Assembly: GCA_964557245.1 (NCBI GenBank)
Contig: CAZKZR010000001.1
Span: 1 to 27,093, forward strand
Origin: an uncultured Anaerolineaceae bacterium
GTDB lineage: Bacteria > Chloroflexota > Dehalococcoidia > Tepidiformales > Tepidiformaceae
Direction: 5' to 3'
DNA: 27,093 nucleotides
Part shown: positions 7,980 through 25,942 of the stretch, one piece after another
Layout: every line of letters begins with the position of its first letter
Position numbering within the stretch: the first letter of the stretch is position 1
Notes under the pieces: generated by a model
Database searches by the model: none
The model's input: the letters and a program-made list of their open reading frames with translations, nothing else
Told to the model about the DNA's origin: nothing
Translations under genes and position numbers: made by a program

Positions 7980-7989
7980 CGCCGGGGCT
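7971..7989. repeat. Degenerate third REP arm overlapping the transposase start
   Basis: CTCCGTCACCGCCGGGGCT matches 7388-7406 CTCCCTCACGGTCGGGGCT at 16/19 positions. Confidence 0.6.
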
Positions 7990-7990
7990 C

Positions 7991-8359
7991 CTACTTCTTC
8001 TTTTTCGTCTTCACCTTCGGTTCAGACCCGCCACCGGCGGTCTGTGCCGCGAGCAGCGCCGCCAGCGCATCGTCAATCCGGTCCATCCGCAGGAGGATTG
8101 TGTGCACCTGGTCCTGGAGGCGCTGGAACTCCACCAGCGGCACCGCCCCCACCGCCTCCACAATCGGCCCATACGCTTCGCGCGCGGCCTTCGCCATGGC
8201 GGCCCGCGCCGCCACATAGTTCTTCTCGATCTCGCCCGTCATCGCCTGGCCCTCGGGCGTGGCCGACGTAGCTTCGTACACCTGTCCCCACTGCTTCAGG
8301 AACTGGTCGCTCATCGATTTCCACTGGTTCATCAGGTCAGCAATGCCGGGCTGTGTCAT
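7991..8359 (-). CDS. Small helical protein, putative PhaE/PhaR-like PHA synthase partner or granule protein (122 aa)
   Basis: Amphipathic helices; C-terminal coiled coil VPLVEFQRLQDQVHTILLRMDRIDDAL resembles PhaE/PhaR C-termini; Lys-rich tail; close to phaC. Confidence 0.6.
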   Translation of the reverse strand: MTQPGIADLMNQWKSMSDQFLKQWGQVYEATSATPEGQAMTGEIEKNYVAARAAMAKAAREAYGPIVEAVGAVPLVEFQRLQDQVHTILLRMDRIDDALAALLAAQTAGGGSEPKVKTKKKK

Positions 8360-9256: not shown

Positions 9257-11599
9257 CTACGGCACGATGACGCGGCCGCGGACCATGTCCCGGAGTGTCT
9301 CGCTCAACTGGTCATAGGCCACGATCAGCCGCTCATCGATGTCCGTGCCGCTTGTGTAGACGGCGAAGCCGATCTGCCCCGCCGGTTCGTATTCCATGAC
9401 GCCCGAGCGCCCGTAGTGGCCCCAGCGCTCGCCGTAGATACGCCCTTCTTCCCGCCAGCACGGGCAGAACGGATAGGTGCCCAACCCGGCGTACTGGAAC
9501 TCGGGACCGAGGAAGTCGGTCATCGCATCGCGCGTCGCTTCCGAGAGCAAACGGTCCGTTCCGTAGAGGGCGAGCGCCCAGGCCGCGATGTCGCCAACAG
9601 TGGAATAGATACCTGCTGACGACCAGAGCAGGCCGTGGTACTCGAACGCCGCGGTCGCCGGGCCAGTACTCGATGACGAGCGGAGAATGCCCGAACTGGA
9701 ACGCAGCGCGGCGTTGCTCTGGGGATGCGTCGAAGCCGCGGTCGGCGCGATCTCTTCGTCCATTTTGGTCCCGGTAAGTCCGAGCGGGTCCAGCAACCGT
9801 TCGTGGAGCGCGGTGGTATACGGCGTTCCTGTGACCTTCTCGATGACCAGCCCGAGCATGTAGTACCCCGGACTGGAGTAAAGAAACCCTGTACCCGGTT
9901 CGAAAGCCAGGGGAGTCCGCGACGCGGCCAGCAGCGCGTCGGCCGGCGCGATCCCGTCGGTCGCCATCAGCCCCGAACGATGTTGGATAAGCTCCCGGAC
10001 GGTGTAGTCCCCGTCGTGAGCGATCCATGGCACGTAGTTCGAAACTCGCGCGTCCAGGTCCACCTTGCCTTCTTCCACCAGCTGGAGAACGAGGGCGACC
10101 GTGAACGTCTTGGTGACGCTGGCCGTCGGGTAGACGTAATTCGACGGCAACGGCTGTCCGGTCTGGACGTTGTTTCCGGACGCTGCCTGCCACGTCGAAC
10201 CGTTCCCCATGGCGATGGCGACGGCGGTGCCATCGAGTCCGTTGCTCAAACGCCAGGCATCGAGCGCCGCCTGCAGTTCCCCGGCGCTGACCGTTGCGGG
10301 TTCGTTGGGCGCGGGCAAAACATCGGGCGAAGGCGGTTCCTCCAGGACCACCGCACTCGCCGCACGGAGCGCGATCCCGACTCCCGACGGCGGGACCGCC
10401 CGGTGCTCGGCTCGCAGGTCTCCCGTGGGCCGCAGTTCGCTCACAAGGAACGCCGCGAGCAGCGTGAAAACGCCCATCGCGGCCACGGCCGGCACCGCGA
10501 ACCGCCTCAGCACCGACTGGTCCGTAGAGATTCGCTGTGGGCCCGCCCGGGGAGTGATGTGAAGTTCCCGCCGCGCCGCGAAATCTTCTACCCATCCGAA
10601 CGCCAGCATGCAGACGAAGGTCACGGCCAGGACGATCGGGAAGGCCGCGACATCCCGCAGCCATGCGGGGTGCGGGTCGGCCCAGAGGAGTTCGTACATC
10701 ACGAAGAGGCCAGCCGCGTGCCACAGGTAGATCGTGAAGATGCGGTCGTTCACCCAGGCGACGAACCGCGCCGGACCGGGCTGCGTGGCGAGCCGGCGCA
10801 GCGGCGCTTCGAACGTCAGCGCGATGCCCAGCCAGGTAAGACCGACCAGCAAGTGGGCGGGATACGAAGCGTTGACCACCATCCCCGGCACGTCCTGGGT
10901 CGCAATCCAGGCGGTAGCCCCGATCGCGAAGACGAGCGTTCCGGCCGCCCGCACTCGCGTCCCGATCCTGCCAACCAGACCGGCGTTGTACGCGAAACCG
11001 AGCAACCAGAAGATCGAGAACGTCGCCGCATCTTCAAACTGCCACGGCACGGGGTGGCCGGCCCGGGCGCGCATTTCGAAGACAATCGCAAAGCCCAGGG
11101 GGATGCCGATCACGGCGACGGACAGGCGCCGGAACAGCCAGAGCAGCAGCGGGCTGAGGAGGATGAGCCAGGTCAGGCAGCGCAGGTACCAGAGCACCGC
11201 CCAGAAGGTGACTCCCCAGCCGGAACCCTGGGGATCCCAGATGGGGAAGATCCACCACGGCAGCTGGTCCCAGCGCATCGGCTGCCCCAGTTCCACCTTC
11301 ACCTGCGAGTGCAGCGCCATGCCCGGGACAACGACCAGGGCAAAGGCCCACAGCGGTATGAGCAGCCTTCGGAAGCGGGCTATCAACACGTGCCGCCAGG
11401 AGGCTCGTTCCAGGGAGTGGGCCATCAGCGAGCCGGCGACGAAGAACATCGCCGGCATGGAGGCGACCAGGTAAGAGAGCCACGCGAAGCCGAACGTGTG
11501 CCAGGCCAGCACCCGGATGATTGCGACCGCGCGAATCAGGTCCAGGAACTGGTTGTGCGGCTTGTTCTGTGCCGGACCTTCGGCCGTAGCGTGTTGCAT
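9257..11599 (-). CDS. Acyltransferase-3 (OafA-like, polytopic) fused to a beta-lactamase/class C-type serine hydrolase
   Basis: N-terminal FLDLIRAVAI..H, MPAMFFVAG, RFRRLLIP, LWYL and FTIYLWH with about 10 hydrophobic segments. C-terminal SxxK (ASVTK), LIQHRSG, FEPGTGFLYSS and GHYG. Confidence 0.88.
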   Translation of the reverse strand: MQHATAEGPAQNKPHNQFLDLIRAVAIIRVLAWHTFGFAWLSYLVASMPAMFFVAGSLMAHSLERASWRHVLIARFRRLLIPLWAFALVVVPGMALHSQVKVELGQPMRWDQLPWWIFPIWDPQGSGWGVTFWAVLWYLRCLTWLILLSPLLLWLFRRLSVAVIGIPLGFAIVFEMRARAGHPVPWQFEDAATFSIFWLLGFAYNAGLVGRIGTRVRAAGTLVFAIGATAWIATQDVPGMVVNASYPAHLLVGLTWLGIALTFEAPLRRLATQPGPARFVAWVNDRIFTIYLWHAAGLFVMYELLWADPHPAWLRDVAAFPIVLAVTFVCMLAFGWVEDFAARRELHITPRAGPQRISTDQSVLRRFAVPAVAAMGVFTLLAAFLVSELRPTGDLRAEHRAVPPSGVGIALRAASAVVLEEPPSPDVLPAPNEPATVSAGELQAALDAWRLSNGLDGTAVAIAMGNGSTWQAASGNNVQTGQPLPSNYVYPTASVTKTFTVALVLQLVEEGKVDLDARVSNYVPWIAHDGDYTVRELIQHRSGLMATDGIAPADALLAASRTPLAFEPGTGFLYSSPGYYMLGLVIEKVTGTPYTTALHERLLDPLGLTGTKMDEEIAPTAASTHPQSNAALRSSSGILRSSSSTGPATAAFEYHGLLWSSAGIYSTVGDIAAWALALYGTDRLLSEATRDAMTDFLGPEFQYAGLGTYPFCPCWREEGRIYGERWGHYGRSGVMEYEPAGQIGFAVYTSGTDIDERLIVAYDQLSETLRDMVRGRVIVP

Positions 11600-11758: not shown

Positions 11759-12796
11759 TTGATCCTGGCCTCCGGGGCATGGCTGTTGCTTGCCCTGAGC
11801 TGTACCGGCCCGGCGCCGGCCGGGCAGAGTTCCGCGAGCATCGTGACCCTGGCCCAGGACCGCGTCCAGATGGACGCAGGTCTTGATTCGCCGGAGTTGC
11901 TGGGCTTTTCGCTTGCGCCGACCTGGTCGGCCGCTCCGCAGCAGCGACTTCGCGGCGGGCGGAGCGCATGCGCCACTGCCTACCCCTCGGGTTACACAGC
12001 GGGCAAGACGGCCCTGCGAACGCTGACGTCCGGCTCGCTCAAACGTACCTACCGCGTGCACATTCCCGCGCAAACGAAAAACGATCGGCCGCTCGCTGTT
12101 GTCCTGAACTTCCACGGGCGCAGCGGCACCGGCATCGATCAGGAGATCACGTCGGGTCTGCTTCCGGTCAGCGACCGCGAGGGCTTCATCCTCGTTTCGC
12201 CCGACGGGACTGGCACCCCCATGGGCTGGTCTGCCGGCGCCACGCCGGCCAACAGCACCGATGACGTCCGGTTCGTGTCGGACATCCTCGACACGCTCCA
12301 GCGTGAGCTCTGCGTGGACACGTCGCGGGTGTACGCGACCGGCTTCTCCAACGGGGCGTTCATGACCTCGCGGCTCGCCTGCGCGATGCCCGACCGCATC
12401 GCGGCAGTCGTCGCTGTCGGCGGTGTCGATTTCCCGGAGGGAAAGTGCCGCTCCACCGTGCCGGTGCTCGCCATCCATGGCACCGCCGATGAGGTCGTGC
12501 CGATCGATGGCGGGATTGTGCGCGAGTGGCACTACCAGGGCGCGAACGCTTCGATCGAAGACTGGGCCGCAAACAACGGCTGCCGTCCAGTTGCCTCTAC
12601 CGTGACGCTCGCTGCCGGCGTAACCGTCGATGCCTTCGCCGACTGCTCCGCTCCCACCGCGATCATCCGCATCGCGGGCGCCGGTCATCTCTGGCCAGGC
12701 GCCCCCGGCTACTCGGCGGGGACCCCCGGCGCAAACGTCGCCGGCGCGAACATCGTCTGGCGTTTCCTGTCGCAGGGCGTGGTCGGCGGCAATTAG
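11759..12796 (+). CDS. Secreted or lipoprotein esterase, PHB depolymerase / LpqC family (start uncertain)
   Basis: Motifs RTYRVHIP, VLNFHG, GFILVSPDG, DDVRFV, GFSNG (nucleophile), IHGTAD and GAGHLWPG; signal-like N-terminus ending LALSC. Confidence 0.88.
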   Translation: MILASGAWLLLALSCTGPAPAGQSSASIVTLAQDRVQMDAGLDSPELLGFSLAPTWSAAPQQRLRGGRSACATAYPSGYTAGKTALRTLTSGSLKRTYRVHIPAQTKNDRPLAVVLNFHGRSGTGIDQEITSGLLPVSDREGFILVSPDGTGTPMGWSAGATPANSTDDVRFVSDILDTLQRELCVDTSRVYATGFSNGAFMTSRLACAMPDRIAAVVAVGGVDFPEGKCRSTVPVLAIHGTADEVVPIDGGIVREWHYQGANASIEDWAANNGCRPVASTVTLAAGVTVDAFADCSAPTAIIRIAGAGHLWPGAPGYSAGTPGANVAGANIVWRFLSQGVVGGN

Positions 12797-13890
12797 GTTG
12801 CGCGGTCGAGCGGCAGCGTGAACGAGAGTGTGGCCCCTCCCGCGGCTTCGTTGCGCGCCGAAATCGTCCCGCCGTGCGCCTCCACGAGCCGCCGTGCGAT
12901 GGCCAGCCCAAGACCGCTTCCGGTCGAATCCGCCGCCTTCCGGTAGCGTTCGAAGATGTGCTCGAGTTCCTCGGCGGGGATGCCCGGTCCGGTGTCGGAA
13001 ACGGAGATCGTCGCTTGCCCGCTGTCCGATTCGAGCATGAGGCTGACCGTTCCACCCTCGGGCGAGTGGCGCAGCGCGTTCGAGACCAGGTTCTCCAGCA
13101 CCTGGCGAACGCGCCCGGCATCGGCGTCCGCGCTGACCGGCGTTCCCGTCACGGTGATGGTCTGCCGCTTCCGCACAGCCTGTGCCGCCGAGGCGGCGGC
13201 GACATCCTGGAGGAGGCTCAGCAGATCCGTCGTTTCGCGGTGCAGGTGCAGGACGCCGGCCTCCGCCGACGAGAGCGTCCCGAGGTCATCCACGAGCCGG
13301 GCGATAACGCTGACCTCTTCCAGCACGCCGCTGAGCCGTTCACGGTCGGCCGGGTACACGCCGTCCAGCATGCCTTCGACGTTGCCCCGTATGACGGCGA
13401 GGGGGTTCCGCACCTCGTGCGCGATATCGGCCACGAGGGCTCGCCGCTGCTCTTCCGCGCCCTGCAGCCGGCTCGCGGTCACGTTGAACGACTCGGCGAG
13501 TCCCCGCATCGGCGGCGGGCCATTGCTATCCACGCGTGCCGAGTAGTCGCCTGTTGCGAGTTGGGCCAGCCCCGCCGCGACGTTGTCCAGGGGCCCGGTA
13601 AATCTCCGGGCGATGCGCGTCACCCCGAAAATGAGGAACCCCAGGAAGGCCAGGAAGAACACCCCGCCGAACGGCGGCGAGGGGCGGCCGTCATCCCGCC
13701 GCCAACCGCCGCCGTCATGGTTCGAAAACAGGATGGCGGAAACAGCTGCAAAGAGGGCCACGATCACCAGCAACGCCAGCAAGCCGACCAGGATTCGGCG
13801 GCCGAAGCCACTCCGCGCGCGCCGGGGAGGCGGCCATGGCTCGCCCTCCGGCCACCAGGGCGGCCTCGTCCGTGGCGGCCGCCCGGTCAT
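12793..13890 (-). CDS. Sensor histidine kinase (2 TM, HAMP, HisKA, HATPase), BaeS-like
   Basis: Motifs ADIAHEVRNPL (H-box), NLVSNALRH, DTGPGI and GSGLGLAI; start overlaps the regulator stop. Confidence 0.95.
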   Translation of the reverse strand: MTGRPPRTRPPWWPEGEPWPPPRRARSGFGRRILVGLLALLVIVALFAAVSAILFSNHDGGGWRRDDGRPSPPFGGVFFLAFLGFLIFGVTRIARRFTGPLDNVAAGLAQLATGDYSARVDSNGPPPMRGLAESFNVTASRLQGAEEQRRALVADIAHEVRNPLAVIRGNVEGMLDGVYPADRERLSGVLEEVSVIARLVDDLGTLSSAEAGVLHLHRETTDLLSLLQDVAAASAAQAVRKRQTITVTGTPVSADADAGRVRQVLENLVSNALRHSPEGGTVSLMLESDSGQATISVSDTGPGIPAEELEHIFERYRKAADSTGSGLGLAIARRLVEAHGGTISARNEAAGGATLSFTLPLDRAT

Positions 13891-14579
13891 CGCCGCGACT
13901 CCGGCTGTTCGGCGAACCGGTAGCCCAGCCCGTACACCGTCTGGATGTACCGGGGATGCGCAGGGTCCGGTTCGATCTTCTTGCGGATGTTCTTGATGTG
14001 GGAGTCGATCGCCCGTTCGTAGGACTCGAAGGCGATGCCGTGCAGCAGGTCCAACAGCTGTCCGCGGGTGAAGACGCGTCCCGGCTGCCGCGCGAGTTGC
14101 GCCAGGAGCTGGATCTCCGAGGCCGTCAGGTCCGCCGCGCGACCACCAACGGTGACGCGCAAACGCGACACGTCTACTTCGACATCGCCCGCGCGAATGA
14201 CCTCTGCCGGGCCTGCGGCCAACTCTGCCCGCCGCAGCACCGCCCGCACCCGGGCGACCAGCTCGCGCGGGCTGAACGGCTTCACCACGTAGTCGTCGGT
14301 GCCCATTTCCAGCCCTGCTACCCGGTCCGACTCTTCGCCTCGGGCTGTGAGGATCACCACCGGGACGTTCGAAGTGCGCCGCAACTCCCGGATTACGTCC
14401 AGGCCGTCGCGCCTGGGCAACCCGAGGTCCAACACCACGAGGTCCGTCCCCTGGCGCGCTTCCCGCAGAGCCGAATCGCCGTCCGCGACGACCGACACTT
14501 CGAACCCGGCCGAAACCAGGTAATCCCGCACCAGCGCGCTGATCTTGGGCTCATCTTCCGCGACGAGGATGCGTGGCAT
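13887..14579 (-). CDS. OmpR-family response regulator
   Basis: Motifs RILVAEDE, VVLDLGLP, ILTAR, DDYVVKPFSPREL and wHTH RAIDSHIKNIRKK..TVYGLGY; AGGAG precedes ATG 14579. Confidence 0.95.
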   Translation of the reverse strand: MPRILVAEDEPKISALVRDYLVSAGFEVSVVADGDSALREARQGTDLVVLDLGLPRRDGLDVIRELRRTSNVPVVILTARGEESDRVAGLEMGTDDYVVKPFSPRELVARVRAVLRRAELAAGPAEVIRAGDVEVDVSRLRVTVGGRAADLTASEIQLLAQLARQPGRVFTRGQLLDLLHGIAFESYERAIDSHIKNIRKKIEPDPAHPRYIQTVYGLGYRFAEQPESRR

Positions 14580-14612
14580 GAGTCGGTCTCCTGCGGATAG
14601 TTCATCACGAAC

Positions 14613-14666
14613 GGCCGCCCCCGGCACGAGGGCACGGGAGCGGCCTACGGGCACTCGTAGTGCCCG
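14613..14666. repeat. Two adjacent intergenic palindromes, GTAG-type REP-like
   Basis: 14613-14622 GGCCGCCCCC and 14636-14645 GGGAGCGGCC pair at 9/10, preceded on the minus strand by GTA(G). 14648-14666 is CGGGCACT-cgt-AGTGCCCG (8/8). Confidence 0.6.
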
Positions 14667-15128: not shown

Positions 15129-15617
15129 TCAGTCGCGGGCGTAGCCGCCATCGCGAAGGCGCCGCCAGACTTCGCCGCTCGCGGCGTAGCGCTCCATCAG
15201 GTACGGGTACACGGCGGGGACGTTGAACAGCTCTTCCATGCACAGCTGGGAGAGATAGCGGTCCAGCAGCGTCGGGTGCTCATCGGGGTCCACCATGTCC
15301 AGCATGAGCCCCTCCTCGAAGCCTCCTGCGGCGGCAGGCATCCCGGGGACCACGTTCGACGTGACCAGGCCCTTCGCTTCGAGTGATTCGATCGCCGCGC
15401 GCAGCCTCGCCCGGAACTCCGGGATGACGCGCATGTTGTCCGGCCCGAGGTAGGCCTCGCGGTCTTCGGTCTCCTGCAACGCAGCAGCCACCGCGCACAC
15501 GTGGTCCACGCGGAAGGCATCGCTTCCCGCCGACTTCGACGGCGGCAAGCCCACCGAAAGCACGCCCAGGACGGTTTTCTCCAGCAGATCGAGGTCTTGC
15601 GGTTGGTAGGCACTCAC
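15129..15617 (-). CDS. Hypothetical protein (about 162 aa), possible winged-helix-like fold
   Basis: Biased codon usage starts near GTG 15617, which is preceded by TG-C-TACCCT at 7 nt. Segments LLEKTVLGVL and LRAAIESLEAKGLV recall wHTH helices. Confidence 0.65.
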   Translation of the reverse strand: MSAYQPQDLDLLEKTVLGVLSVGLPPSKSAGSDAFRVDHVCAVAAALQETEDREAYLGPDNMRVIPEFRARLRAAIESLEAKGLVTSNVVPGMPAAAGGFEEGLMLDMVDPDEHPTLLDRYLSQLCMEELFNVPAVYPYLMERYAASGEVWRRLRDGGYARD

Positions 15618-15710
15618 AACGGACAGGGTAGCAAAGCGGTTGAAATCGCAAAGGAATGAGGACGGTTGCACCCCGAACCTGCGGGAGGCTTCTCGCGTTA
15701 GAATCCCACA

Positions 15711-15745
15711 CTCAGTCCTCAGTCCTTTCAACTTTCAACTCAGGA
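15711..15745 (+). repeat. Short tandem heptamer run in the epoxide hydrolase leader
   Basis: CTCAGTC CTCAGTC CTTTCAA CTTTCAA CTCAGGA. Confidence 0.6.
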
Positions 15746-15754
15746 GGCCGGGCA

Positions 15755-16705
15755 ATGGCCGAAATTCGCCATCACCAGGTCCAGACCAACGGAATCAACA
15801 TGCACGTCGCCGAAGCCGGCGTGGGCTTCCCCGTGGTCTTCATCCACGGCTTTCCCGAACTCTGGTACTCCTGGCGCCACCAGATCCAGTCGCTCGCCGA
15901 CAACGGCTTCAGGGCGATTGCGCCGGACCAGCGCGGCTACGGCGAAACCGACGCGCCGAAAGACCCGCACCAGTACACGATGAAGATCCTCACCGCGGAT
16001 ATGGCCGGGCTACTCGACGCCCTGGACATCGAGAAGGCGGTCTTCGTGGGCCACGATTGGGGCGGCGCCGTGCTCTGGCAGATGGGGCTCCGGTATCCGG
16101 AACGGGTGGAGCGGCTCGTTGGCCTGAACACGCCGTTCGGGGGCGCCGGCGGTGGGCGTGTGACCGAAAACCTGCGTGATTTCCACGGGCTATCGGACCA
16201 GACGTTCTACATGCGCTACTTCCTGAACCCAGGCGTCGCCGAAGCCGAACTCGAAGCGGATGTGCGCACCACCTTCAAGAAGATCTTCCTGCCCTACACC
16301 CGCGCCGAGGATTTCACGACGTTCATGAAGGTCGGTGGCGATGGCAGCGGTGTGATCGCGAAGATCGAGCACACGGACACGTTCCTCACGGACGAGGAAC
16401 TGGACGTCTACACCAGCACGTTCGAGCGGACCGGCTTCACCGGCGGCCTGAACTGGTACCGCGGCGCGGACTTCAACGCCGACGAAGTCGGCGGCCCGAC
16501 GGCCAACACGCTGGCCATCAAATCCATGATGGTGACGGCCGGGAAGGACACGATTCTCAAGCCCGCGATGGCGGCGGCCATGCCGATGATGATTCCTGGC
16601 ATCCGCATGGAGCACATCGAGGACTGTTCCCACTGGACCCAGCAGGAGCGCCCGGCCGAAGTGAACGCGCTGCTGCTGGACTTCCTTGCCGATCTGAAGC
16701 GCTAG
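15755..16705 (+). CDS. Epoxide hydrolase (alpha/beta fold, soluble EH-like)
   Basis: Motifs HGFPELWYSWRHQ, APDQRGYG, Asp nucleophile GHDWGG, FYMRYF and LNWYR lid tyrosines, CSHWTQQE; AGGAGG SD. Confidence 0.92.
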   Translation: MAEIRHHQVQTNGINMHVAEAGVGFPVVFIHGFPELWYSWRHQIQSLADNGFRAIAPDQRGYGETDAPKDPHQYTMKILTADMAGLLDALDIEKAVFVGHDWGGAVLWQMGLRYPERVERLVGLNTPFGGAGGGRVTENLRDFHGLSDQTFYMRYFLNPGVAEAELEADVRTTFKKIFLPYTRAEDFTTFMKVGGDGSGVIAKIEHTDTFLTDEELDVYTSTFERTGFTGGLNWYRGADFNADEVGGPTANTLAIKSMMVTAGKDTILKPAMAAAMPMMIPGIRMEHIEDCSHWTQQERPAEVNALLLDFLADLKR

Positions 16706-16945: not shown

Positions 16946-19774
16946 TCAGGCGGCCTTCTGCAATTGCCTCGGCGCGAGCTCGATCACCTGCGCCGGGGCC
17001 TTGTGGGATTCGCGGTACCGCTGCGCGAACCCGCCGACGAAGAACGCGAGTGCCATCAGTTCGGCGCCCTCTTCGATGACGGTGATCGTCCACGCGTGCG
17101 ACGCGAATCCGTCGATTGCGACCGTCAGTACCGCGAACGGCGCCGCGCCGAGGAAGTACAGGATGGCCTTCGGGTGTTCGAACACCTGCTTCCAGAGCAG
17201 CGCCGAGATAGCCATGCCGGTCAGCCCGTAGACCGCGACGATGAAGTCGCTCGGGCGGTGGAACCCGAACGGGTGGTCGAACGGAGTCGTCGCCGAAATC
17301 AGGCCGCCGAGCTTGCCGTGAATATCCGGCGTGGCATCGAACGCGAGAATCGCGAACGCCAGGCCCCAGGCGCCCCAGAGGTCGCGGTAGATGGCCCGTC
17401 CGCCGTCCTTCCGCCAGGCGGAGATGCCCATCGTGCCCGCCACCAGCATCATTGCCGACGACAGGAAGGTGACGGGCCCGAAGTCCCGGAACAGGTCCGG
17501 TTCGGCGCTGCGGGGGTCGATGGCCGCGGAACCGGCCAGCGCGGTGGCGGCGAACACTCCCGTGAATACGACGAGCGCAGGGGTGAGGTACCGCGTGCGG
17601 GCCAGGCGGCCGGCAAACGCCTCGAGGGCCCTCGCGGCCGGGACAATCCCTTTGCTCGCGGTCTCCGAGCGGCCAGCGGCTTCGCGAACCCGCAGCACGG
17701 AGGCGCCGGCCAGGAACACCCCCGCCGCGAGCGCAGCCGCGGATGCTCCACTGACGGCGGCCGCTTCCAGCCCGAAGGCGGCGCCGGCGGCGATCGTCGC
17801 GACGGCAAGGACGGGCGATGACGCTCGCGAAGCCAGGAATTCGTGGCGGAACATCCAGGCGGTTGCGGCCGCGGTCAGCGCGTAGGCGGCGGCCGCCAGC
17901 ATCGTCGTTTCACTCTCGCCGGGGACCATCGGGATGTTGGTGTCCTCGAACAGGCCCGCGATGTTCGCGCTGATGTTGAACGCAAGGTCGATGCCCGCGC
18001 CGAGAGCGCCAACGCCGGCGATCAGCCAGAGGAAGCTCCCGCCCTGGTCGGCCGCCGAGGCGGATTGCCCGGTCTTCCAGAAGGCGCGGAAGGCGAGCAG
18101 CGCCGCGAGACCCGAGACCGCCAGCGCGGCGTACGCCACCCGGTCCATTGCGGTGCCCGAAAGCGACCCGCCGGCGAGCACCGCCGTCCCGGCGATGGCT
18201 CCAACTGCCGCCACCGAGACCAGCCCGGCCGCGTTCGGCTGGCGCAGCTTTGCTGAAGCGGCCGGGAGCGCCATCCAGCGGCTCAGCGCACCGAGGTGCA
18301 GCCGCTCATGCAGGCGGAACGGGATGTGGCGAAGGGCCTGGTCGAACAGGACCGCGCGCAGTGCCCGCTGCGATCGGAACGGCCGCGCCGCGAGGTAGGC
18401 AAAAGCGCCGAATCCCGGGATGGCGCCGAGGACGAACACCGGCGCAGAGTGCACCGCGCGAGCTTCGCGCCTGGCGTCCGCGTTGCGCAGTCCGGACCAT
18501 TCGCCCTTCAGCCGGGCGGCCAGCGTCCAGCCGCTGCGGGCGATGGAACCCAGCGGGAAGCGCAGGGGCACACTCATGGCCAGGTGGGCGCCGAGGCCAG
18601 CGGTCGCAGCGGTCATCTCGGGAGCGGCCAGCGAAGCGCGCGCTGCTTCGGCCTCGGCCGGTTGCAGCAGGCCTTCGTTGACCCAGTTGTCGATGCCGGC
18701 GGTCGCGATGTCCGTCGCCATCCGCTCGCCGCCCGAAGACAGCCGCTTCACTCCGCGGAACCAGCCCGGCACGTCGATGATTGCCGTGGCGATGCGCAGC
18801 GCTTTGCTCACGTAGCGCCGCTCGCTGGCGTGCCATGCGCGCTGAGCAATGCCGTAGTTGGCGGCGGAGATGCGCAGGCTGTTCGCGCTGGCGTCGCCGA
18901 GTTGTGCCTCAATCTGGGGCAGGTGTCGCTCGAGGTAGGCGTTCAGCCGGCCCACGTTGATCTCATCGAACGAGGGATAGAGCCCGGCCCGCAACGAGCG
19001 CCAGAGCACTCGCGGCCGCAGGAACGGGGACACCAGGTTCGATTCGAGGTCGATGATCCGGTACGCGCCGTCCGTGCGTTCGATGAGGTTGCCGATGGCG
19101 CGCGGGTTGTACGAAGCCACCTGCCACGGCGGCAGCCCGGCCTCTTCGAAGTGGCCCTGGAGCCGGTTCAGGAACGTCCGCGCGGTTTTCGTATCCCGCG
19201 GGAGCGTACCGCGAACTAACTCGGTGACCAGGCTGTAGCGCCCGTCGTCGCCGAGCGTGACATCCAGCACCGGTGAGACGTGGTTCTCGCCGAACCAGTA
19301 CTCGGTGAGCAATCCCGCGATCGCCCGCCGCTCAGTGGCCGCCGTGAATGCGGCTTCGTTGGTGGTGTAGGGGAAGGCGGACTGGAACGAGAGCGCGTAG
19401 AGCAGTTTCACGGGCCTGGTCGGCCGGTACACCTTCGTCGCCGTGCCCCTGTCGTAGTCCAGCACCACATCACTCGAAATCGAGCCGGTCAGCACGATCC
19501 CGGTCTCCGGCACTGATGTGGCCGGGGCAACGGCCTCAGCGGTGGCGGCGCCACGCCGGAAAGCGAGCACCAGCCCCGCGCCGCCGAACGCGACCGCAAG
19601 GCTCAGCGCGAACGCGGCCGCCCAGGCCGGCTGCGCGGCTTGTGTTGCCTCGAATAGCGCTGCGGCGGCGAAGAAGATGCCGACGGCGATCAGTGACCCG
19701 GCAGCGGCAAGTCGGCCGCTTCCGTGAGTGTCAGCCGTACCGAAGTCCTGGTGTGCAGGCGTCCAGGTGGACAT
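16946..19774 (-). CDS. 942-aa membrane protein: 2 TM, protein-kinase-like domain, multi-TM C-terminal region
   Basis: GGGGAG SD. Kinase-like elements ATKVYR, HVSPVLDV..SLVTELVRG, GNLI and RIIDLE, followed by many hydrophobic helices. Confidence 0.8.
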   Translation of the reverse strand: MSTWTPAHQDFGTADTHGSGRLAAAGSLIAVGIFFAAAALFEATQAAQPAWAAAFALSLAVAFGGAGLVLAFRRGAATAEAVAPATSVPETGIVLTGSISSDVVLDYDRGTATKVYRPTRPVKLLYALSFQSAFPYTTNEAAFTAATERRAIAGLLTEYWFGENHVSPVLDVTLGDDGRYSLVTELVRGTLPRDTKTARTFLNRLQGHFEEAGLPPWQVASYNPRAIGNLIERTDGAYRIIDLESNLVSPFLRPRVLWRSLRAGLYPSFDEINVGRLNAYLERHLPQIEAQLGDASANSLRISAANYGIAQRAWHASERRYVSKALRIATAIIDVPGWFRGVKRLSSGGERMATDIATAGIDNWVNEGLLQPAEAEAARASLAAPEMTAATAGLGAHLAMSVPLRFPLGSIARSGWTLAARLKGEWSGLRNADARREARAVHSAPVFVLGAIPGFGAFAYLAARPFRSQRALRAVLFDQALRHIPFRLHERLHLGALSRWMALPAASAKLRQPNAAGLVSVAAVGAIAGTAVLAGGSLSGTAMDRVAYAALAVSGLAALLAFRAFWKTGQSASAADQGGSFLWLIAGVGALGAGIDLAFNISANIAGLFEDTNIPMVPGESETTMLAAAAYALTAAATAWMFRHEFLASRASSPVLAVATIAAGAAFGLEAAAVSGASAAALAAGVFLAGASVLRVREAAGRSETASKGIVPAARALEAFAGRLARTRYLTPALVVFTGVFAATALAGSAAIDPRSAEPDLFRDFGPVTFLSSAMMLVAGTMGISAWRKDGGRAIYRDLWGAWGLAFAILAFDATPDIHGKLGGLISATTPFDHPFGFHRPSDFIVAVYGLTGMAISALLWKQVFEHPKAILYFLGAAPFAVLTVAIDGFASHAWTITVIEEGAELMALAFFVGGFAQRYRESHKAPAQVIELAPRQLQKAA

Positions 19775-19943: not shown

Positions 19944-20894
19944 TCAGGCCGGGAGCAACGCCCGCAGCCGCTCATCCAGCTCCTTCAGCGGCCGGCCCTT
20001 GCCGAAACGCTCGAGCACGGACCGCCTGCCCGACTGGTTCGTCTTCAGTTCACCTGCCCGGTGCTTTTCCAGCAGACCGGCGATCGCCGCTCGAACCTGT
20101 TCCAGCCCTTCGGCCTTGATGCACCCCGGCATGGCGAACGTCCAGATGACGTATCTGCCCCGCGAAAGCGCCTCAACCGCGATGAACGACTGGCCGTCGT
20201 GGCTCGTAAGCCGCACCACCACCGTGGTCTCGCGGTACAGCGCGTCCATGTCCTCTACCCAATCCCGGGCCTCCAGGTTGGACGGCAGCGGCTGGGGCAA
20301 CGTCCCGGCCGGGGACGGAATGAGCGTGAACGGCACCTCAGGAAACTCGCGTGGCAGCTGCAACAGCGTTTCGCCGTCGAATACCTCGCGGTCGTACGAA
20401 TCGACGGGGTAGTAGAGCAACACGCGGAATTCTTCGGGCAAAGGCGGCGCCGGAGGCACATGGATAGGAATCGGGAGCGAGACGTACTCGGAGATGACGC
20501 CAATTGTCCGCAGCTCTTCCACTAACCAGGGCGCGTCGCACCAGTGCGCCGGCCGTTCGGCCACGCGCAGTGACACGTTGTGCCGGCGGTGCTCGTCGAT
20601 GGCGATCTGCACGTCGGTGCCAACCCAGTGGATGACCGTGGGCTTCCTTCGCAACCGCAACAGGCGGTCCTGCGGTGACTTGCGGTCAATCCGGCTGCCG
20701 ATCAGGTAGACGATGTCGGCGCGCGCGGCGGCCGCCGCCACTTTCGCCCAGCCGCCGGCGCTCCTTCCAGGGTGGGGAAGGTATTCCGCCTTCCAGCCCA
20801 GGTCTCCCAGGTCCCTGGCCAGCAGCTTCCCGAAATAGGGCAGCCCCAGGATCAGGATGCGGCCACGGCGCTCCCCGTCGCCCCCAGGGTTCAT
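19944..20894 (-). CDS. Putative glycosyltransferase (GT-B, GT4-like, divergent)
   Basis: Motifs RILILG, HWVGTD, SHDGQSFIAVEALSRGRYVI (GT4 S..E.....EA..G.PVI-like); start overlaps the acyltransferase stop. Confidence 0.7.
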   Translation of the reverse strand: MNPGGDGERRGRILILGLPYFGKLLARDLGDLGWKAEYLPHPGRSAGGWAKVAAAAARADIVYLIGSRIDRKSPQDRLLRLRRKPTVIHWVGTDVQIAIDEHRRHNVSLRVAERPAHWCDAPWLVEELRTIGVISEYVSLPIPIHVPPAPPLPEEFRVLLYYPVDSYDREVFDGETLLQLPREFPEVPFTLIPSPAGTLPQPLPSNLEARDWVEDMDALYRETTVVVRLTSHDGQSFIAVEALSRGRYVIWTFAMPGCIKAEGLEQVRAAIAGLLEKHRAGELKTNQSGRRSVLERFGKGRPLKELDERLRALLPA

Positions 20895-21487
20895 TGCGGC
20901 GGCGTCTCACCGGCAACGCGTGCCCGTGGCGCGACGAGCGTCGCCCCGGGCGCCACATCGCGGTCCACAAGGGCATGCGCGCCGATCGTCGCGCGCTGGC
21001 CGACCGTCACACCGTGCAGCACCGTCGCGCCTAGCCCCAGGTACGCCCCGGAACCGATCGTGACCGGAGCCTGCTGGCGCGGGTGCCGCTCCTTCAGCGG
21101 CCCCGATCCAACATCGATGTGGGTGATGACGCTGCAGCGCATCGAAAGCGTGGCTTCAGACTCGATGACCACGCCATCCGCGAGGTCGATCAGGACATCG
21201 GTGCCGAGATGGACCCGATCGCCAATAGTGAGGTTCCTGAAGTCCCCATCCGCGTTCACGATGTGGATCGGCCCATGGATGGAAACGTCGCGGCCAACGG
21301 TGGCGCCGAACTCCCGGAGGATCTCCACGTGGGCGTTGGGCGTAGTTCGCAGTTCGATGGCGATCCCCTCGATCCCGTCCCGCAGATAGCGCGCCCGGCG
21401 GCGCGATCGGCCGAAGATCCCGAGGGATCGACGGACGGGGCGGGCGGCCGGCGCAATAGCGTTCCGGAAACGGGATAATGCCGTCAG
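20891..21487 (-). CDS. Hexapeptide-repeat (LbH) acyltransferase; the track ORF starts at 21328, likely true start CTG 21487
   Basis: Repeats VGRDVSI, IGDRVHL, IESEATL, IGSGAYLGLGATVLHGVTVGQRATIGAHALV. The frame is open to 21520, and GGAGG lies 8 nt before CTG 21487. Confidence 0.88.
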   Translation of the reverse strand: MTALSRFRNAIAPAARPVRRSLGIFGRSRRRARYLRDGIEGIAIELRTTPNAHVEILREFGATVGRDVSIHGPIHIVNADGDFRNLTIGDRVHLGTDVLIDLADGVVIESEATLSMRCSVITHIDVGSGPLKERHPRQQAPVTIGSGAYLGLGATVLHGVTVGQRATIGAHALVDRDVAPGATLVAPRARVAGETPPQ

Positions 21488-21635: not shown

Positions 21636-22076
21636 ATGAAGCGAGCGTTACTCTTCGCCTTTGGCGCGGCCGCCCTGCTCTCCGCAGCGGCTCCTGCCCT
21701 GGTTTCGGCCCAGAATTTCCCGCCGCCGCCCCCAACCACCTTCTACGGCAAGGTCCCTTCGGGCATCGGCCCCGGCGATACCGTTATCGCGATCGTCACC
21801 GACGGCACGTCGTCGCAGGTCTGCGGTGACGGCGCCACCGCGAACGACACCAGCGGTGTTGTCTACGTGGTGGATGTGGTTGCCAATGCGCAGACCGCGG
21901 GCTGCGGCCAGACCGGCCGAAACGTCCAGTTCTACTTCGTCGGCGCCAAGCGCCTGGCGACGGACACGGCCGCATGGGCCGGCCCAGGCCCGAAGGAGCA
22001 GAACTTGACAGGTCTCGGTCAGCCGCTTACGCCCAAGAACCGCGCCCCGCAAGTCGCGAAGGACGGCGTCAACTAG
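21636..22076 (+). CDS. Secreted beta-rich protein, paralog 1
   Basis: Signal peptide MKRALLFAFGAAALLSAAAPALVSA; motifs FYGKV, VIAIV, VCG, VYVVDV, AGCG; tail APQVAKDGVN. Confidence 0.85.
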   Translation: MKRALLFAFGAAALLSAAAPALVSAQNFPPPPPTTFYGKVPSGIGPGDTVIAIVTDGTSSQVCGDGATANDTSGVVYVVDVVANAQTAGCGQTGRNVQFYFVGAKRLATDTAAWAGPGPKEQNLTGLGQPLTPKNRAPQVAKDGVN

Positions 22077-22083
22077 GCTCCTC

Positions 22084-22602
22084 GTGAACCACTTTCGAAG
22101 CGAGCACGTCCCGCGGCCCGGGAACCGTTCCAGGTTCCTCGTGGCGGGAGTGCTCGCTTCGTCGTTCCTGGCGTTCGCGGCATTTGGCATAGCCCGGGCG
22201 GTCGACCCACCCCAGCCGGACTTCTTCTGGCCTTACGGCAAGGTCCAATCCGGGGGCCAGAACATCTCGCCGCCCGTCCAACGCGTCATCGCCATCGTCA
22301 ACGGCAAAGCCTGCGGCGAAGCCACGACGCTGGTCGCGCAGGCTGGCCCCGGGGTGCCTGCCGGCGATGTAGGCAAGACGGTCTACGTGGTAGACGTCTT
22401 CGCCGATGGCGCTGGCTCGGGACAGCGCGCCGGCTGCGGACGGCCGGGCGATGTGGTCTGGCTCTACTTCCCGGAATCCCACCAGTTCGCTGCCCAGCTC
22501 GCGAACTTCGCCCAGGGCAGTCTCCGCTTCGACGTGGACCTCGGGGATGAGCTGCCGTTCCGGCTGCAGGGACCGATGCTGGCGAACGACGGACTGAACT
22601 AA
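22084..22602 (+). CDS. Secreted beta-rich protein, paralog 2
   Basis: Signal peptide ending IARA; motifs PYGKV, VIAIV, ACG, VYVVDV, AGCG; tail GPMLANDGLN. Confidence 0.85.
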   Translation: MNHFRSEHVPRPGNRSRFLVAGVLASSFLAFAAFGIARAVDPPQPDFFWPYGKVQSGGQNISPPVQRVIAIVNGKACGEATTLVAQAGPGVPAGDVGKTVYVVDVFADGAGSGQRAGCGRPGDVVWLYFPESHQFAAQLANFAQGSLRFDVDLGDELPFRLQGPMLANDGLN

Positions 22603-22673
22603 GCGGGGGCGGACGCGATTCCTGCCTCTCGACAGATGTGCGCTCCCGGGCAGTGCGCGATACTGCGCGCGTC

Positions 22674-23420
22674 ATGAGGATTCTCCGTATTGGGACCAGC
22701 AACGACGACCAAACCCCCGTTCCAGAAGCTCAGCGCGGCTGGAAAATCGCCGAACAGATGCTCGCTGAGGCGACCGGAGAACCGGTGGAAACCGTCCTTC
22801 GGCGCGGCTGGCCGAATTCGAAGTTCGGAGACCGTCTCGAAGCCTGGATGGAAGAACTCCAGCCCGATTTCGTCGTCATCCAGGTCAACAACTACTGGTA
22901 CGGGCACGAATCGATTCCGCTTTGGCTGCACCGCCGGCTCGGCCGCGTGGGCGATTCGGTCGGCAGCGTCGGGGCGAAGGTCGGGAGATGGTCGTGGGTG
23001 GCCGACAATCGCGTGGCTCAGCTCGTGAACAGGCGCGCCCCGGATGTCCTGCCGTACGCAACCCATTTCTCCGTCGCGGAAGTGGCGTCTGGCATGGAGT
23101 CGGCTCTGCGCCGCGTGTTGACCCATGAGGGTGTGCTCCTCCTGGTTCGCGGCAACGAAGACTGGCATATCCCTACCGCCTCCGCGCGCTTCAACCGCCG
23201 CAACCGCGCTCGCAACGCCGCCATGTCAGCCGCGATGAGGGAGGTCTGCGAGCGTCTGCGTGTGCCGTACGCGCAGCGCCCTTCGAATCCGGAGGAAGTG
23301 CGAACTGTGAATAACGCTGGTTTCCATTCCGCGCCCGAAGAGCAACAGAATGCCGGAGCTTTCGATGGCGAGTCGATGATCGCGGCCTGGCGGAGCGTCC
23401 ACTCCCTCGCCCTGCCCTGA
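22674..23420 (+). CDS. SGNH/GDSL-like protein, paralog of 1250..2002
   Basis: MRILRIGTSND aligns with MKILRLTNSSD, fixing the start at ATG 22674. Shared ATGEPVET, WP, PD, YW..ES.PL, VRG and CER.R.P. Confidence 0.7.
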   Translation: MRILRIGTSNDDQTPVPEAQRGWKIAEQMLAEATGEPVETVLRRGWPNSKFGDRLEAWMEELQPDFVVIQVNNYWYGHESIPLWLHRRLGRVGDSVGSVGAKVGRWSWVADNRVAQLVNRRAPDVLPYATHFSVAEVASGMESALRRVLTHEGVLLLVRGNEDWHIPTASARFNRRNRARNAAMSAAMREVCERLRVPYAQRPSNPEEVRTVNNAGFHSAPEEQQNAGAFDGESMIAAWRSVHSLALP

Positions 23421-23421
23421 G

Positions 23422-24363
23422 CTAACGCCAGAGCACCGCGACCAGTTTCTCCAGTGCCTCTCCCGCCCGCGGCCCCGGCGCGCGGAGGAAGAGCGAGGTA
23501 TCGAGCACGGCGACGCGGTCCTGTTTGACGGCGGGCACTCCTGCCCAGGCTCGGTCGGCTTTGATCTGCGCATCAAGCCCGCCCTGCCCCGAAGGGAGGA
23601 TGAGCACGGCCTCCGGAGCGAGCGCGGCGGCGGCGCCGACATCAATGACCCCAAAACCCGGTATTGGCCCGCCATCCGCGACGGAACCAAGCACGTTGGT
23701 TGCTCCGAGGTATTCCAGCAGGCTCCCGATATAGGTCGCCGAGCCGCCCCCGAAGACGTCCCGTCCGCCTCCGGTCAACACCAGCACCCTGGGCGCGCCG
23801 CCGCGGGCCGCGGCCACACCGCGGGCGGCCTCCGTGCGCGCTTCGAGTTGATCTCGCGCGGCCGCTGCCTCCGGCCCATGGTCCGTCGCCTCTCCCATCG
23901 CCGTCAGGGCCGCCAGAACCTCGGAGAACGAGTTCGCCTTCAGCATGTAGACCGGGCGGCTGAAGCGGTCGAAATCCCGTGTCCGGCCGGCCTGGTAGGC
24001 CGCGTCAGCCAGCACAAGGTCCGGCGCGAGCGCCTCGATGGCGTTGAAGTCGGGAGAAATGGCAGAACCGACAAGCTTCGCCGCGGGCGCCACATCCGCC
24101 GGCGTGTCGGAGGTGCGGCCCAGTACCTCCAGACCGATGGCCACGGCGTAATCGGCCGCGGCCGGGCTCAAGGCCACAACGGTCCGCACTTCCTCGGGCA
24201 GCGAAACGCTCCGCCCCGTCATGTCTGTGACTTGCCGGCCCCCGTTGGTGCCGCTTGCGGTGACCGTGGCCGTCGGCGAAGGCCTTGGCGGAACGGCCGG
24301 CGCCGCTTTCCCGCAACCGGCGAAGACGCCGGCGAGCAGCGCCACCGCCAGCCACCGTTTCAC
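23422..24363 (-). CDS. ABC transporter substrate-binding lipoprotein (BtuF / iron-siderophore, helical-backbone type)
   Basis: Lipobox FAGC; motifs VTDMTGRSV, TVVALSP, PDFNAIEALAPDLVL, GATNV and RAPGPR. GTGA overlap with the cofC stop. Confidence 0.9.
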   Translation of the reverse strand: MKRWLAVALLAGVFAGCGKAAPAVPPRPSPTATVTASGTNGGRQVTDMTGRSVSLPEEVRTVVALSPAAADYAVAIGLEVLGRTSDTPADVAPAAKLVGSAISPDFNAIEALAPDLVLADAAYQAGRTRDFDRFSRPVYMLKANSFSEVLAALTAMGEATDHGPEAAAARDQLEARTEAARGVAAARGGAPRVLVLTGGGRDVFGGGSATYIGSLLEYLGATNVLGSVADGGPIPGFGVIDVGAAAALAPEAVLILPSGQGGLDAQIKADRAWAGVPAVKQDRVAVLDTSLFLRAPGPRAGEALEKLVAVLWR

Positions 24364-25013
24364 GCGCGTGCTGCGAGGCGCGCTTCAACGCCAATCGACT
24401 GCAGGTACCGGCCGGCTGCGCCCTGCCGCCCCCGGGGCGCCCTCAGCAACTCGACGATGTCATCGGCGGTATCAAGGTCCAGGCGCAGTTCACGGTTCGG
24501 ACAGACCGCGACGTGCATGCCGGCCTTGCGCGCCGCCGCTGTGTGGCGGGCGAATGACGCTGCCCCGTACGCGAGCGGGAAGCGTCCAGGCGGCTCGAGA
24601 ACCATCGCGTTCGTACCGCCGTCCCGGCTTTCCACCACGGCGATGGCGTTCGGACGCGACATCGAGAGCAGGTAGTCCACGGCTTCATTCGTCGCGAGCG
24701 GGAGGTCCGCATGGAGGATGAGCACCCGCTCCCGCCCGCTGCCTTCCGTCATGAGCGTCGCCAGAGCCGCTTCCAGTTGCCCGTTCAGGCCCTCGACGTC
24801 GGCGGATTCGGGCATCACGCGCGCCTTGCCCGCGGCGGCCGCTCGCACCCGCGGGTCGGCGGTCAGGACCACGGCCGCCGGACCAGCCGCGTGCAGCACC
24901 GATTCGAGCGTGATGATCGCCAGTGTTTCCCGCTCCTCCGGCGAAAGCAGGGGCGCCAGCCGGCCCTTCGCGCGGTCCAGCCGGTTCACCGGAATGAGCA
25001 CGGGAACGCTCAC
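24360..25013 (-). CDS. cofC: 2-phospho-L-lactate/phosphoenolpyruvate guanylyltransferase (F420 biosynthesis; FbiD)
   Basis: Motifs VLIPVN..AKGRL, HADLPL, DGGTNA, YGAASFARH and LDLDTADD; directly after cofD. Confidence 0.92.
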   Translation of the reverse strand: MSVPVLIPVNRLDRAKGRLAPLLSPEERETLAIITLESVLHAAGPAAVVLTADPRVRAAAAGKARVMPESADVEGLNGQLEAALATLMTEGSGRERVLILHADLPLATNEAVDYLLSMSRPNAIAVVESRDGGTNAMVLEPPGRFPLAYGAASFARHTAAARKAGMHVAVCPNRELRLDLDTADDIVELLRAPRGRQGAAGRYLQSIGVEARLAARA

Positions 25014-25942
25014 CTGGCGGTCTCCAGGAAGGCGAGGATGTCGCGAGCCAGTTCCGCTTTCCGTTCCATGCTGGTCATCATCGTGTCCGTCACGAGGCAG
25101 CGAAGTCCCAGCGCTTCTACTTCATTCGCCAGCGCCCGGTCCTGCTCGTCGATGACGAACACATCGATCAGGCCGCTGTAGATCTTCGCCACCCCCAGAG
25201 CGGAAACCTCGTAACCCATCGTGGTCATCATTTTCGCCGCGGGGCCTTTCACCACCTGCCCGGCGATGATCGGGCTCACGGCGACCCGGGTGGCCTTCGT
25301 TGTTGCAAGTGCCGAGCGCACGCCTTCAACGGCGAGGATCGGTCCGACGCTCACGAACGGGTTGCTCGGCGCGAGGAAGACCGTCTCAGCGTCGCGCAGC
25401 GCTTCGATGACACCTGGCGCCGGTTTCGCCGCCTCGATGCCGGCGAACCGGATCGATCGCACATCAACCTCCGTGCGCAGCCGGACCATGTACTCCTGGA
25501 AGGCGAGTTCTCCCTCGGGCCCGGTGATCATCGTCCGCACCGGCTCATTGGTCATGGGAATCACGGTGCAGCGGAGGTCCCAGGCCTTCGCCAGCCCGGC
25601 AACGATTTCGTGCATCGGCACACCCTGGTGGATGAGGCGAGTCCGGTGGATCGCCATCGCCAGGTCCTTGTCGCCCAGGTTGAACCAGCGTTCGTAGCCG
25701 AAGCGCTGGAGCTGATCCACCACGGCGAACGTATCGCTGGTGAGGCCCCATCCCGTCTCCGGGTTGATCGCGCCGGCCAGTGCGTAGAGCACGATGTCGG
25801 TGTCCGGCGAGACGTGCAGGCCGAACATCTCCACATCGTCGCCGGTGTTCGAGATCACGGTGACTTCGGAGGGATCAACTACCTGGCAGAGGCCCTGGAG
25901 GAAGCGAGAAGCGCCGACGCCGCCGGCGAGCACGGTGTACAC
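25010..25942 (-). CDS. cofD: 2-phospho-L-lactate transferase (F420 biosynthesis; FbiA)
   Basis: Motifs LAGGVGASRFLQG, NTGDD, SPDTD, WFNLGDKDLA, PSNPFVSVGPIL and SPII..KGPA. Confidence 0.95.
   Translation of the reverse strand: MYTVLAGGVGASRFLQGLCQVVDPSEVTVISNTGDDVEMFGLHVSPDTDIVLYALAGAINPETGWGLTSDTFAVVDQLQRFGYERWFNLGDKDLAMAIHRTRLIHQGVPMHEIVAGLAKAWDLRCTVIPMTNEPVRTMITGPEGELAFQEYMVRLRTEVDVRSIRFAGIEAAKPAPGVIEALRDAETVFLAPSNPFVSVGPILAVEGVRSALATTKATRVAVSPIIAGQVVKGPAAKMMTTMGYEVSALGVAKIYSGLIDVFVIDEQDRALANEVEALGLRCLVTDTMMTSMERKAELARDILAFLETAR

Follow-up and report, generated by a model that had tools for sequence, protein, structure and literature searches.

The window analyzed here is a stretch of 27,093 nucleotides from an uncultured Anaerolineaceae bacterium (Chloroflexota), and the subject of this work is a gene on its minus strand (16946..19774, stop codon included) for a polytopic membrane protein of 942 amino acids (aa). 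Our analyses give moderate support to a divergent protein-kinase-like (PKL) fold in aa ~92-270 of this protein, with the Lys, Asn and Asp equivalents of a kinase nucleotide site invariant and a Trp-Gln pair at the place of the catalytic Asp. The explanation that we tentatively prefer, and to which we would give slightly less than an even chance, is that a nucleotide-binding domain in the cytoplasm, either a pseudokinase or an atypical transferase, is coupled with a polar site in the outer leaflet and has a role in the turnover of lipid or envelope phosphate. All coordinates given for parts of the gene are on the minus strand.

We modeled aa 85-520 with AlphaFold2 on an alignment of 68 sequences (mean predicted local distance difference test score, pLDDT, 92.5; predicted TM-score, pTM, 0.77). 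In this model, the strands beta1-beta2-beta3 are followed by two short helices, a long helix, strands beta4-beta5, another long helix and two short strands, and the model is all-helical beyond ~aa 270. The domain itself (aa ~92-270, 18965..19501), delimited with the model, Foldseek and the invariant residues, runs from beta1-3 through helices, beta4-5, a hinge and an alphaE-like helix to the two short strands and the motif 'IDLES'. All 50 of the best Foldseek matches in the PDB are protein kinases (probability 0.95-1.0), including p38, JNK, ERK, PknB, Stk1, PknS and the kinase domain of class III lanthipeptide synthetases (PDB 7wj6, 8sam). The elements of a bilobal PKL fold, namely a five-stranded N-lobe sheet with alphaC, a hinge, alphaE, a catalytic loop and an Mg-loop hairpin, can be recognized with moderate rather than strong support. 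An earlier, sequence-only reading of this DNA had proposed an atypical kinase or pseudokinase on the basis of motifs in kinase order; each of these motifs sits at the matching secondary-structure element of the model, and a soluble fold other than kinase-like, which that reading had named as the finding that would speak against it, did not appear among the 50 Foldseek matches. What it observed was largely right, and its pseudokinase reading is supported. Its heading, in which the domain was given 942 aa, was loose, as the kinase-like part covers only ~aa 92-270.

A sister clade (P0209, P0229, P0241, P0245), homologous to the clade of the window protein (hhalign, expectation value (E) 1e-48), carries a canonical-looking 'LGxGRAAxVxLV...EK', and the best PDB sequence matches of its profile are Ser/Thr kinases at the G-loop and beta2-beta3, at a non-significant E of 0.3. 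In this clade, with its canonical-looking G-loop, the hinge is followed by a large insertion, and the helical region is doubled. One of the genes (P0229, locus L007, 8001-10100) is preceded by a gene for a 576-aa protein with weak DUF3616 and phytase-like matches.

Residues invariant in the 68 aligned sequences include S101, K114, R150, G189, W217, P224, N229, D242, E244, S245 and D270, among others, and Q218 and R149 are nearly invariant. The equivalent of the beta-3 Lys, K114 (in ATKVY; 19433..19435), lies on the third strand of the model and aligns with the Lys of 'EK' in the sister clade. The equivalent of the catalytic-loop Asn, N229 (in GNLI; 19088..19090), stands directly before a beta7-like strand, and D242-L-E244-S245 (19040..19051), in which D242 of IIDLE corresponds to the Mg-binding Asp of DFG and the D, E and S are all invariant, follows directly on a beta8-like strand. 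These three assignments of the sequence-only reading were upheld by the alignments, as were its hinge SLVTELVRG, where G189 of 'ELVRG' is invariant, and its observation that GLPPWQ stands in place of HxD. In that slot W217-Q218 (19121..19126) is read as W-Q-(V/I) throughout, the distant clade included ('WQV'), and no conserved Asp is present between the alphaE-like helix and N229. The set K, N, D-x-E-S and W-Q is kept in the 68 sequences and in the distant clade. Two further motif assignments had to be given up: the proposed alphaC Glu of TER, E148, lies in a variable column (H/Y/A/Q/L/E/R) where R149-R150 are conserved instead, and the Gly-loop-like stretch LTGSISSDVVL contains no conserved Gly in the clade of the window protein, only the invariant S101, the Gly-loop motif being that of the distant sister clade. 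Because the catalytic Asp and the Lys-Glu pair are absent and the Mg-nucleotide ligands are kept, and a pseudokinase is a PKL fold that has lost the catalytic Asp, the Lys-Glu pair or both, the domain would by definition be a pseudokinase or an atypical enzyme.

The gene was taken from the list of open reading frames (ORFs) and its translation, and its start codon, ATG at 19774, is supported by close homologs that share an MS(T/A)WT N-terminus. A word-indexed search recovered 103 homologous clusters (clustering at 90% identity) with identities from 77% down to ~34%; compared over full or partial length, homologs are 77-36% identical. An exhaustive hidden Markov model (HMM) search, with a profile of the core region only, gave 655 representatives (50% clustering) at E <= 1e-3, of which 223 reach E <= 1e-30. 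With this number of homologs, the ORF is a real conserved gene. All 14 loci from species-representative genomes are on metagenome-assembled genomes of Chloroflexota (Dehalococcoidia, Tepidiformaceae, 'Anaerolineaceae', Chloroflexia), and further homolog matches carry the names Dehalococcoidia and Thermomicrobiales; no relative with a taxon label falls outside the Chloroflexota genomes of this kind. The whole protein has no match in Pfam-A or NCBIfam, 18 diverse core sequences gave nothing meaningful in Pfam at E <= 10, and searches of PDB sequences, whether started from the protein itself or from profiles of the alignments A1 and A4, returned chance matches only, for instance a 35-residue match to ribosomal protein L4. 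A literature search found no description of the family. The family is new, without sequence coverage in Pfam, NCBIfam or the PDB, in agreement with the remark in the sequence-only reading that no described architecture was recognized; it sits within a known, kinase-like fold class that is joined to new membrane modules. Four of the homologs (P0220, P0231, P0153 and P0208) look frameshifted. An apparent fusion of an MMPL protein to the core (P0173) was rejected, as the junction lies inside the kinase-like domain and the tail reads frameshifted, so that it is most likely an assembly chimera.

Hydropathy analysis identified hydrophobic segments at aa ~24-45 and ~52-72, a weak one at 443-464, and many transmembrane segments after aa 514; together with the ORF list and the AlphaFold2 helices this bears out the two N-terminal and many C-terminal transmembrane segments that had been described for the 942-aa ORF. 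The core that is common to the homologs spans aa ~95-500, as determined by BLAST against them. Beyond the kinase-like part lies a separable helical module (aa ~332-507, 18254..18781), recognized by its conservation, its secondary structure in the model and the hydrophobic segment at 443-464. It contains two strongly conserved hairpins, SVPLRFPLGSIAR and AIPGFGAFAYLAARPFR, both hydrophobic helix-turn-helix elements with Pro/Gly at the tip, which we infer to reach into the membrane from its cytoplasmic face. What the sequence-only reading took for a soluble domain is not wholly soluble, its C-terminal half being this module with the hydrophobic hairpins.

Four architectures are found in the family. 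The window protein has the first (~950 aa), in which two transmembrane helices, the core and two transmembrane units follow one another; the others are a core with one transmembrane unit (~670-790 aa), an N-terminal PAP2 domain with a core (~700 aa), and mixed forms in which a transmembrane unit is added to a PAP2-core protein (P0081, P0094) or a PAP2 domain follows core and transmembrane unit (P0072, P0116). In the fused relatives P0074-P0103, the PAP2 domain holds the position that the N-terminal pair of transmembrane helices (aa ~24-72, 19559..19705), assigned by hydropathy and a positive-inside count of Lys and Arg (K/R), has in the window protein. The family consists of three modules shuffled by fusion and adjacency, the kinase-like/helical core, the transmembrane unit and phosphoesterases, and the kinase-like domain is wired to membrane modules, as proposed earlier. 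The kinase-like part can be missing: in two independent 50%-identity representatives (P0243, P0247) and at locus L008, a single uninterrupted ORF encodes PAP2, the helical module and the transmembrane unit, with PAP2 joined directly to profile positions 243-418 (window aa ~332-507) and precisely the kinase-like part left out. As these variants keep the other three parts, the kinase-like part would seem to be an addition with an accessory or regulatory role. A split architecture was also observed, at locus L018 (5920-9670), where two tandem core-only genes (444 and 486 aa, kinase-like plus helical) precede an ORF with the transmembrane unit.

The C-terminal half consists of a degenerate unit 1 (aa ~512-704, 17663..18241; local HMM match, E 7e-19) and a well-conserved unit 2 (aa ~726-929, 16988..17599; local HMM match, E 3e-51, and topology count). 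Direct BLASTP of the two halves against each other gave no significant similarity, and hhalign of aa 512-704 against 726-929 aligned 154 columns with 93% probability (E 3e-7), in agreement with the earlier suggestion that the last unit is preceded by a more degenerate one. On the basis of this profile-profile alignment, and because single-unit homologs align to both halves by BLAST, the C-terminal half is a true internal duplication. Unit 2 carries the conserved residues W800, D813 and H819 ('FDATPDIH'), D843, D888 ('AIDG') and E901/E902/E905 ('IEEGAEL'), so that the conserved polar residues suspected there are real; unit 1 keeps D596, E645 and R650 and has lost the His-Glu and EE motifs. Across diverse units a Trp and an Asp with a His six residues on are invariant; two Glu, one where the last helix begins and one beyond that helix, are nearly so. 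A profile search also found stand-alone transmembrane-unit proteins (~250-265 aa, P0252-P0259), which have no Pfam or NCBIfam family; the word-indexed homolog search with unit 2 alone returned fragments only. The AlphaFold2 model of aa 505-942 is all-helical (pLDDT 85.9), and a Foldseek search of this half against the PDB gave nothing better than E 0.5, so a known transporter or enzyme fold is unsupported for it.

With the N-terminus taken as inside, hydropathy, the helices of the model and the positive-inside rule place 19 flanking K/R inside and 4 outside, a distribution from which the core would be cytoplasmic and D813, H819, D843, D888 and E901/E902/E905 are predicted at the outer side of the membrane. 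PAP2 active sites likewise face the outer side, as in PgpB-type enzymes.

Phosphatases are the recurrent partners of the family, as established by scanning the loci with purpose-built HMMs for PAP2, the core, the transmembrane unit and PhoD. PAP2 (PF01569), a lipid phosphate phosphatase, is fused in ~30 of the 103 homologs, with C-terminal fusion in P0072 and P0116 and Thermomicrobiales-type fusions that include P0080 and P0087, and it is also fused at loci L005, L008 and L025. A separate PAP2 gene lies directly downstream at L004 and L006, and also at L022 (two copies), and directly upstream at L013 and L015. At L016, L017 and L020 the divergent upstream neighbor encodes a PhoD-like phosphatase with an N-terminal DUF7670 membrane domain, and the operon at L025 combines a PAP2-core fusion, a stand-alone transmembrane unit and, as an overlapping downstream gene, a PhoD-like phosphatase. 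Additional stand-alone transmembrane-unit genes stand beside the core gene at L011, L013, L015, L018, L019, L021 and L025; nine loci have two transmembrane units each, and the window protein has both fused. Just upstream of the core gene and co-oriented with it, L004 (7345-7683) and L006 (7434-7754) also have an ORF of ~106-112 aa without a Pfam family.

Taken together, the gene may code for a single chain within a modular membrane system found in the Chloroflexota. In the reading that we prefer, the cytoplasmic kinase-like domain would bind ATP or another nucleotide with Mg or Mn, without classical Asp-based phosphotransfer, and would be either a nucleotide-dependent switch (a pseudokinase) or an atypical enzyme, namely a transferase or an ATPase. 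It might then control or energize the pair of transmembrane units, which would form a polar or metal site in the outer leaflet for a phosphorylated membrane lipid or a lipid-linked envelope precursor, for instance a polyprenyl or glycerolipid phosphate. The PAP2 and PhoD partners of the relatives could dephosphorylate the same substrate outside the cell, and in the clade of the window protein the second transmembrane unit is fused in.

Several points weigh against this explanation. The structural matches are marginal (Foldseek E ~1e-3), with low TM-scores (0.18-0.23 when normalized by the query, 0.12-0.34 by the target) and a root-mean-square deviation of 7.5-15.7 A, and no profile-sequence method (Pfam, NCBIfam, PDB profiles) ties the family to any kinase family. 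Neither the whole protein nor the 18 cores matched curated PKL models (Pkinase, APH, Kdo/WaaP, RIO, ABC1, choline kinase and others) at E <= 10. The kinase residues were placed by alignment and by the order of secondary structure in the model, and the topology derives entirely from hydropathy, model helices and the positive-inside rule. The strict invariance of K, N, D, E, S, W and Q suits catalysis as well as regulation. Moreover, the two-unit clade (the window, L001, L002, L003 and L010) has no PAP2 or PhoD gene nearby, so that the phosphatase partnership is borrowed from other clades. Within the window protein Pfam finds no PAP2 domain, and the PAP2 HMM finds nothing across the window. L001 does have a PAP2 gene 9 kb away, which is absent from the window; being a distant PAP2 (E 1e-9 to the PAP2 HMM), it is probably not the partner.

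In a rival reading, the protein could be an active atypical lipid kinase that uses a substitute base, such as E244 or the invariant D270, to phosphorylate a membrane lipid (for example polyprenol, diacylglycerol or a lipid of the inositol type) on the cytoplasmic side, with PAP2 and PhoD opposing it and the transmembrane units binding or flipping the lipid. The 'IDxE' form of the Mg site is typical of small-molecule kinases of the APH/choline-kinase type. In addition, the Mg-ATP-binding residues are invariant in the family of 655 representatives, the hydrophobic hairpins next to the active-site region might bring in the head group of a lipid, and the pairing of kinase and phosphatase recurs; an analogous PAP2-plus-PKL 'lipid kinase' module has been proposed for the unrelated SEAE1 family (bioRxiv 10.64898/2026.09.18.752743). 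However, the catalytic-base Asp is absent in every member, with W-Q conserved, there is no alphaC Glu, and the kinase-like part is dispensable in the variants that consist of PAP2, helical module and transmembrane unit, and we therefore consider an active lipid kinase possible but unlikely. The same variants could be taken to mean that the enzymatic or transport function belongs to the membrane part and that the kinase-like domain is a mere scaffold or dimerization domain with no nucleotide dependence, the more so as the transmembrane unit also stands alone (~250 aa) with its invariant D/H/E set and has no solved relative. In pseudokinases that have degenerated and no longer bind nucleotides, the Lys/Asn/Asp set is usually gone; here it is invariant, and a scaffold role appears doubtful to us.

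The low TM-scores and marginal Foldseek E-values, and the lack of an HMM link to kinases, would also fit a soluble domain that is not kinase-like at all, such as an ATP-grasp-like alpha+beta nucleotide-binding fold, in which case the order of the motifs is coincidental. ATP-grasp enzymes have an ExN Mg motif, which 'IDLESN' superficially recalls, but the Asn of 'ESN' gives way to G/A/S/T in relatives and so is not a conserved residue. Since kinases are all 50 of the best structural matches, the secondary-structure order fits the kinase core residue by residue and the sister clade has a G-loop similarity, we give a different fold only a slim chance. A bolder version of the coupling that we favor is a previously unknown trans-membrane machine, in which a cytoplasmic ATP-binding domain of kinase fold, with Trp-Gln for the catalytic Asp, would drive or gate two transmembrane units of a new fold paired as a pseudo-dimer. 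The Asp/His/Glu site of this fold in the outer leaflet, together with PAP2 or PhoD phosphoesterases, would recycle polyprenyl phosphate or another lipid-linked phosphate carrier; we regard this machine as improbable in this specific form.

Compared with the PKL superfamily, in both Hanks-type/eukaryotic kinases (p38, ERK, PknB, Stk1) and lanthipeptide synthetases (7wj6, 8sam), the window protein has the same order of beta1-3, alphaC, beta4-5, hinge, alphaE, Asn and Mg-Asp. In contrast to these kinases, it has W-Q for HxD and R-R for the alphaC Glu, and it lacks an APE motif and a substrate-binding C-lobe, in the place of which lies the helical bundle with the hydrophobic hairpins. MviN (MurJ) of Mycobacterium tuberculosis contains an intracellular pseudokinase domain, and the window protein resembles it in the presence of a kinase-like domain without full catalytic machinery in a polytopic membrane protein, which for MviN acts in envelope biogenesis. 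Unlike MviN, however, it has no MurJ/MOP domain (no Pfam match; the Wzx flippase WzxE was found by Foldseek at E 1.3 and probability 0.07), its transmembrane unit is of a different, unknown fold type and its family's partners are phosphatases.

UbiB/ABC1/COQ8 proteins are membrane- or lipid-associated PKL proteins with a proposed ATPase or regulatory activity rather than protein phosphorylation; the window protein differs from them in having no PF03109 match, no KxGQ or Ala-rich loop signature in the alignments and other domain partners. SelO and SidJ-type pseudokinases carry out non-kinase chemistry on a PKL fold, and as judged from the model and alignments the window protein would share with them the PKL fold, a retained Lys/Asn/Asp metal-nucleotide site and a non-canonical catalytic geometry, in which a flipped nucleotide might be bound by basic residues near alphaC; no similarity to SelO or SidJ turned up at the sequence or profile level, and nothing pointed to AMPylation or glutamylation. 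SEAE1, for which a PAP2-plus-kinase-like lipid module has been proposed, is reported to have an intact catalytic core and lineage-specific PAP2 coupling (bioRxiv 10.64898/2026.09.18.752743). In contrast to that description, which is all that was compared, the catalytic Asp is absent here, linkage to PAP2/PhoD arises repeatedly through fused or neighboring genes, and there are additional transmembrane modules.

Among the other genes around the core gene is a convergent alpha/beta hydrolase (15656..16705, plus strand; epoxide-hydrolase/haloalkane-dehalogenase-like by Pfam, NCBIfam and sequence, no signal peptide). An alpha/beta hydrolase adjoins the core gene in all 5 of the two-unit loci, that of the window included, as shown by neighbor clustering. 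Upstream and co-oriented with the gene (19944..21328, minus strand) are a 316-aa ORF (19944-20894) and a hexapeptide acetyltransferase (20891-21328). In the sequence-only reading these were a glycosyltransferase and an acetyltransferase; the acetyltransferase is real (Pfam, NCBIfam), but the 316-aa ORF has only a sub-threshold Glyco_trans_1_4 match (E 0.024) and no PDB sequence relative. The pair recurs beside the core gene only in the two nearest relatives, L001 and L014, and an operon link to them was rejected as family-wide context. This neighborhood is lineage-specific and probably not part of the system, so that the role in glycan modification suggested from it is not sustained, the recurrent partners being PAP2 and PhoD-like proteins. 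A promoter and terminator scan around the gene found nothing.

Synteny between the window and its sister locus L001 extends over 19 kb, with 76% nucleotide identity. An IS200-like (Y1_Tnp) transposase segment (7322-8063; ORF 7455-7979, minus strand) replaces a 0.7-kb PAP2 segment of L001. Also present in L001 are the F420 genes cofD (25010-25942) and cofC (24360-25013) with the adjoining gene for a Peripla_BP_2 substrate-binding protein (23422-24363), all on the minus strand; a 780-aa fusion of an Acyl_transf_3 membrane acyltransferase to a beta-lactamase/transpeptidase-like part (9257-11599, minus strand); and, 2.3 kb from the 3' end of the gene, a two-component system of an OmpR-type regulator (13887-14654) and a HAMP-HisKA histidine kinase (12793-13890, minus strand). 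Three minus-strand ORFs without a Pfam or NCBIfam family (21648-22190, 22599-23168 and 15129-15731) are conserved in position in L001/L014 and L001/L003. Envelope-polysaccharide genes are represented by a Wzy_C/O-antigen-ligase-like membrane protein (25979-27082, minus strand) and a DegT/DnrJ sugar aminotransferase (2064-3218, plus strand).

The restriction to uncultured Chloroflexota limits the interest of the family. Within these limits, it would add a sizeable group of 655 representatives to the kinase-like proteins, one that keeps the hallmark Lys, Asn and Asp-x-Glu and has Trp-Gln in place of His-x-Asp, and it defines two further undescribed membrane modules. If the domain is catalytic, it would be another kinase fold with non-canonical chemistry, and the coupling machine, if true, would amount to a new route of carrier-lipid or phospholipid turnover, possibly with new chemistry for the kinase fold. 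The envelope biology of the Chloroflexota is poorly known, and the linkage to PAP2 and PhoD-like phosphatases provides a testable hypothesis on lipid- and envelope-phosphate metabolism in this phylum.

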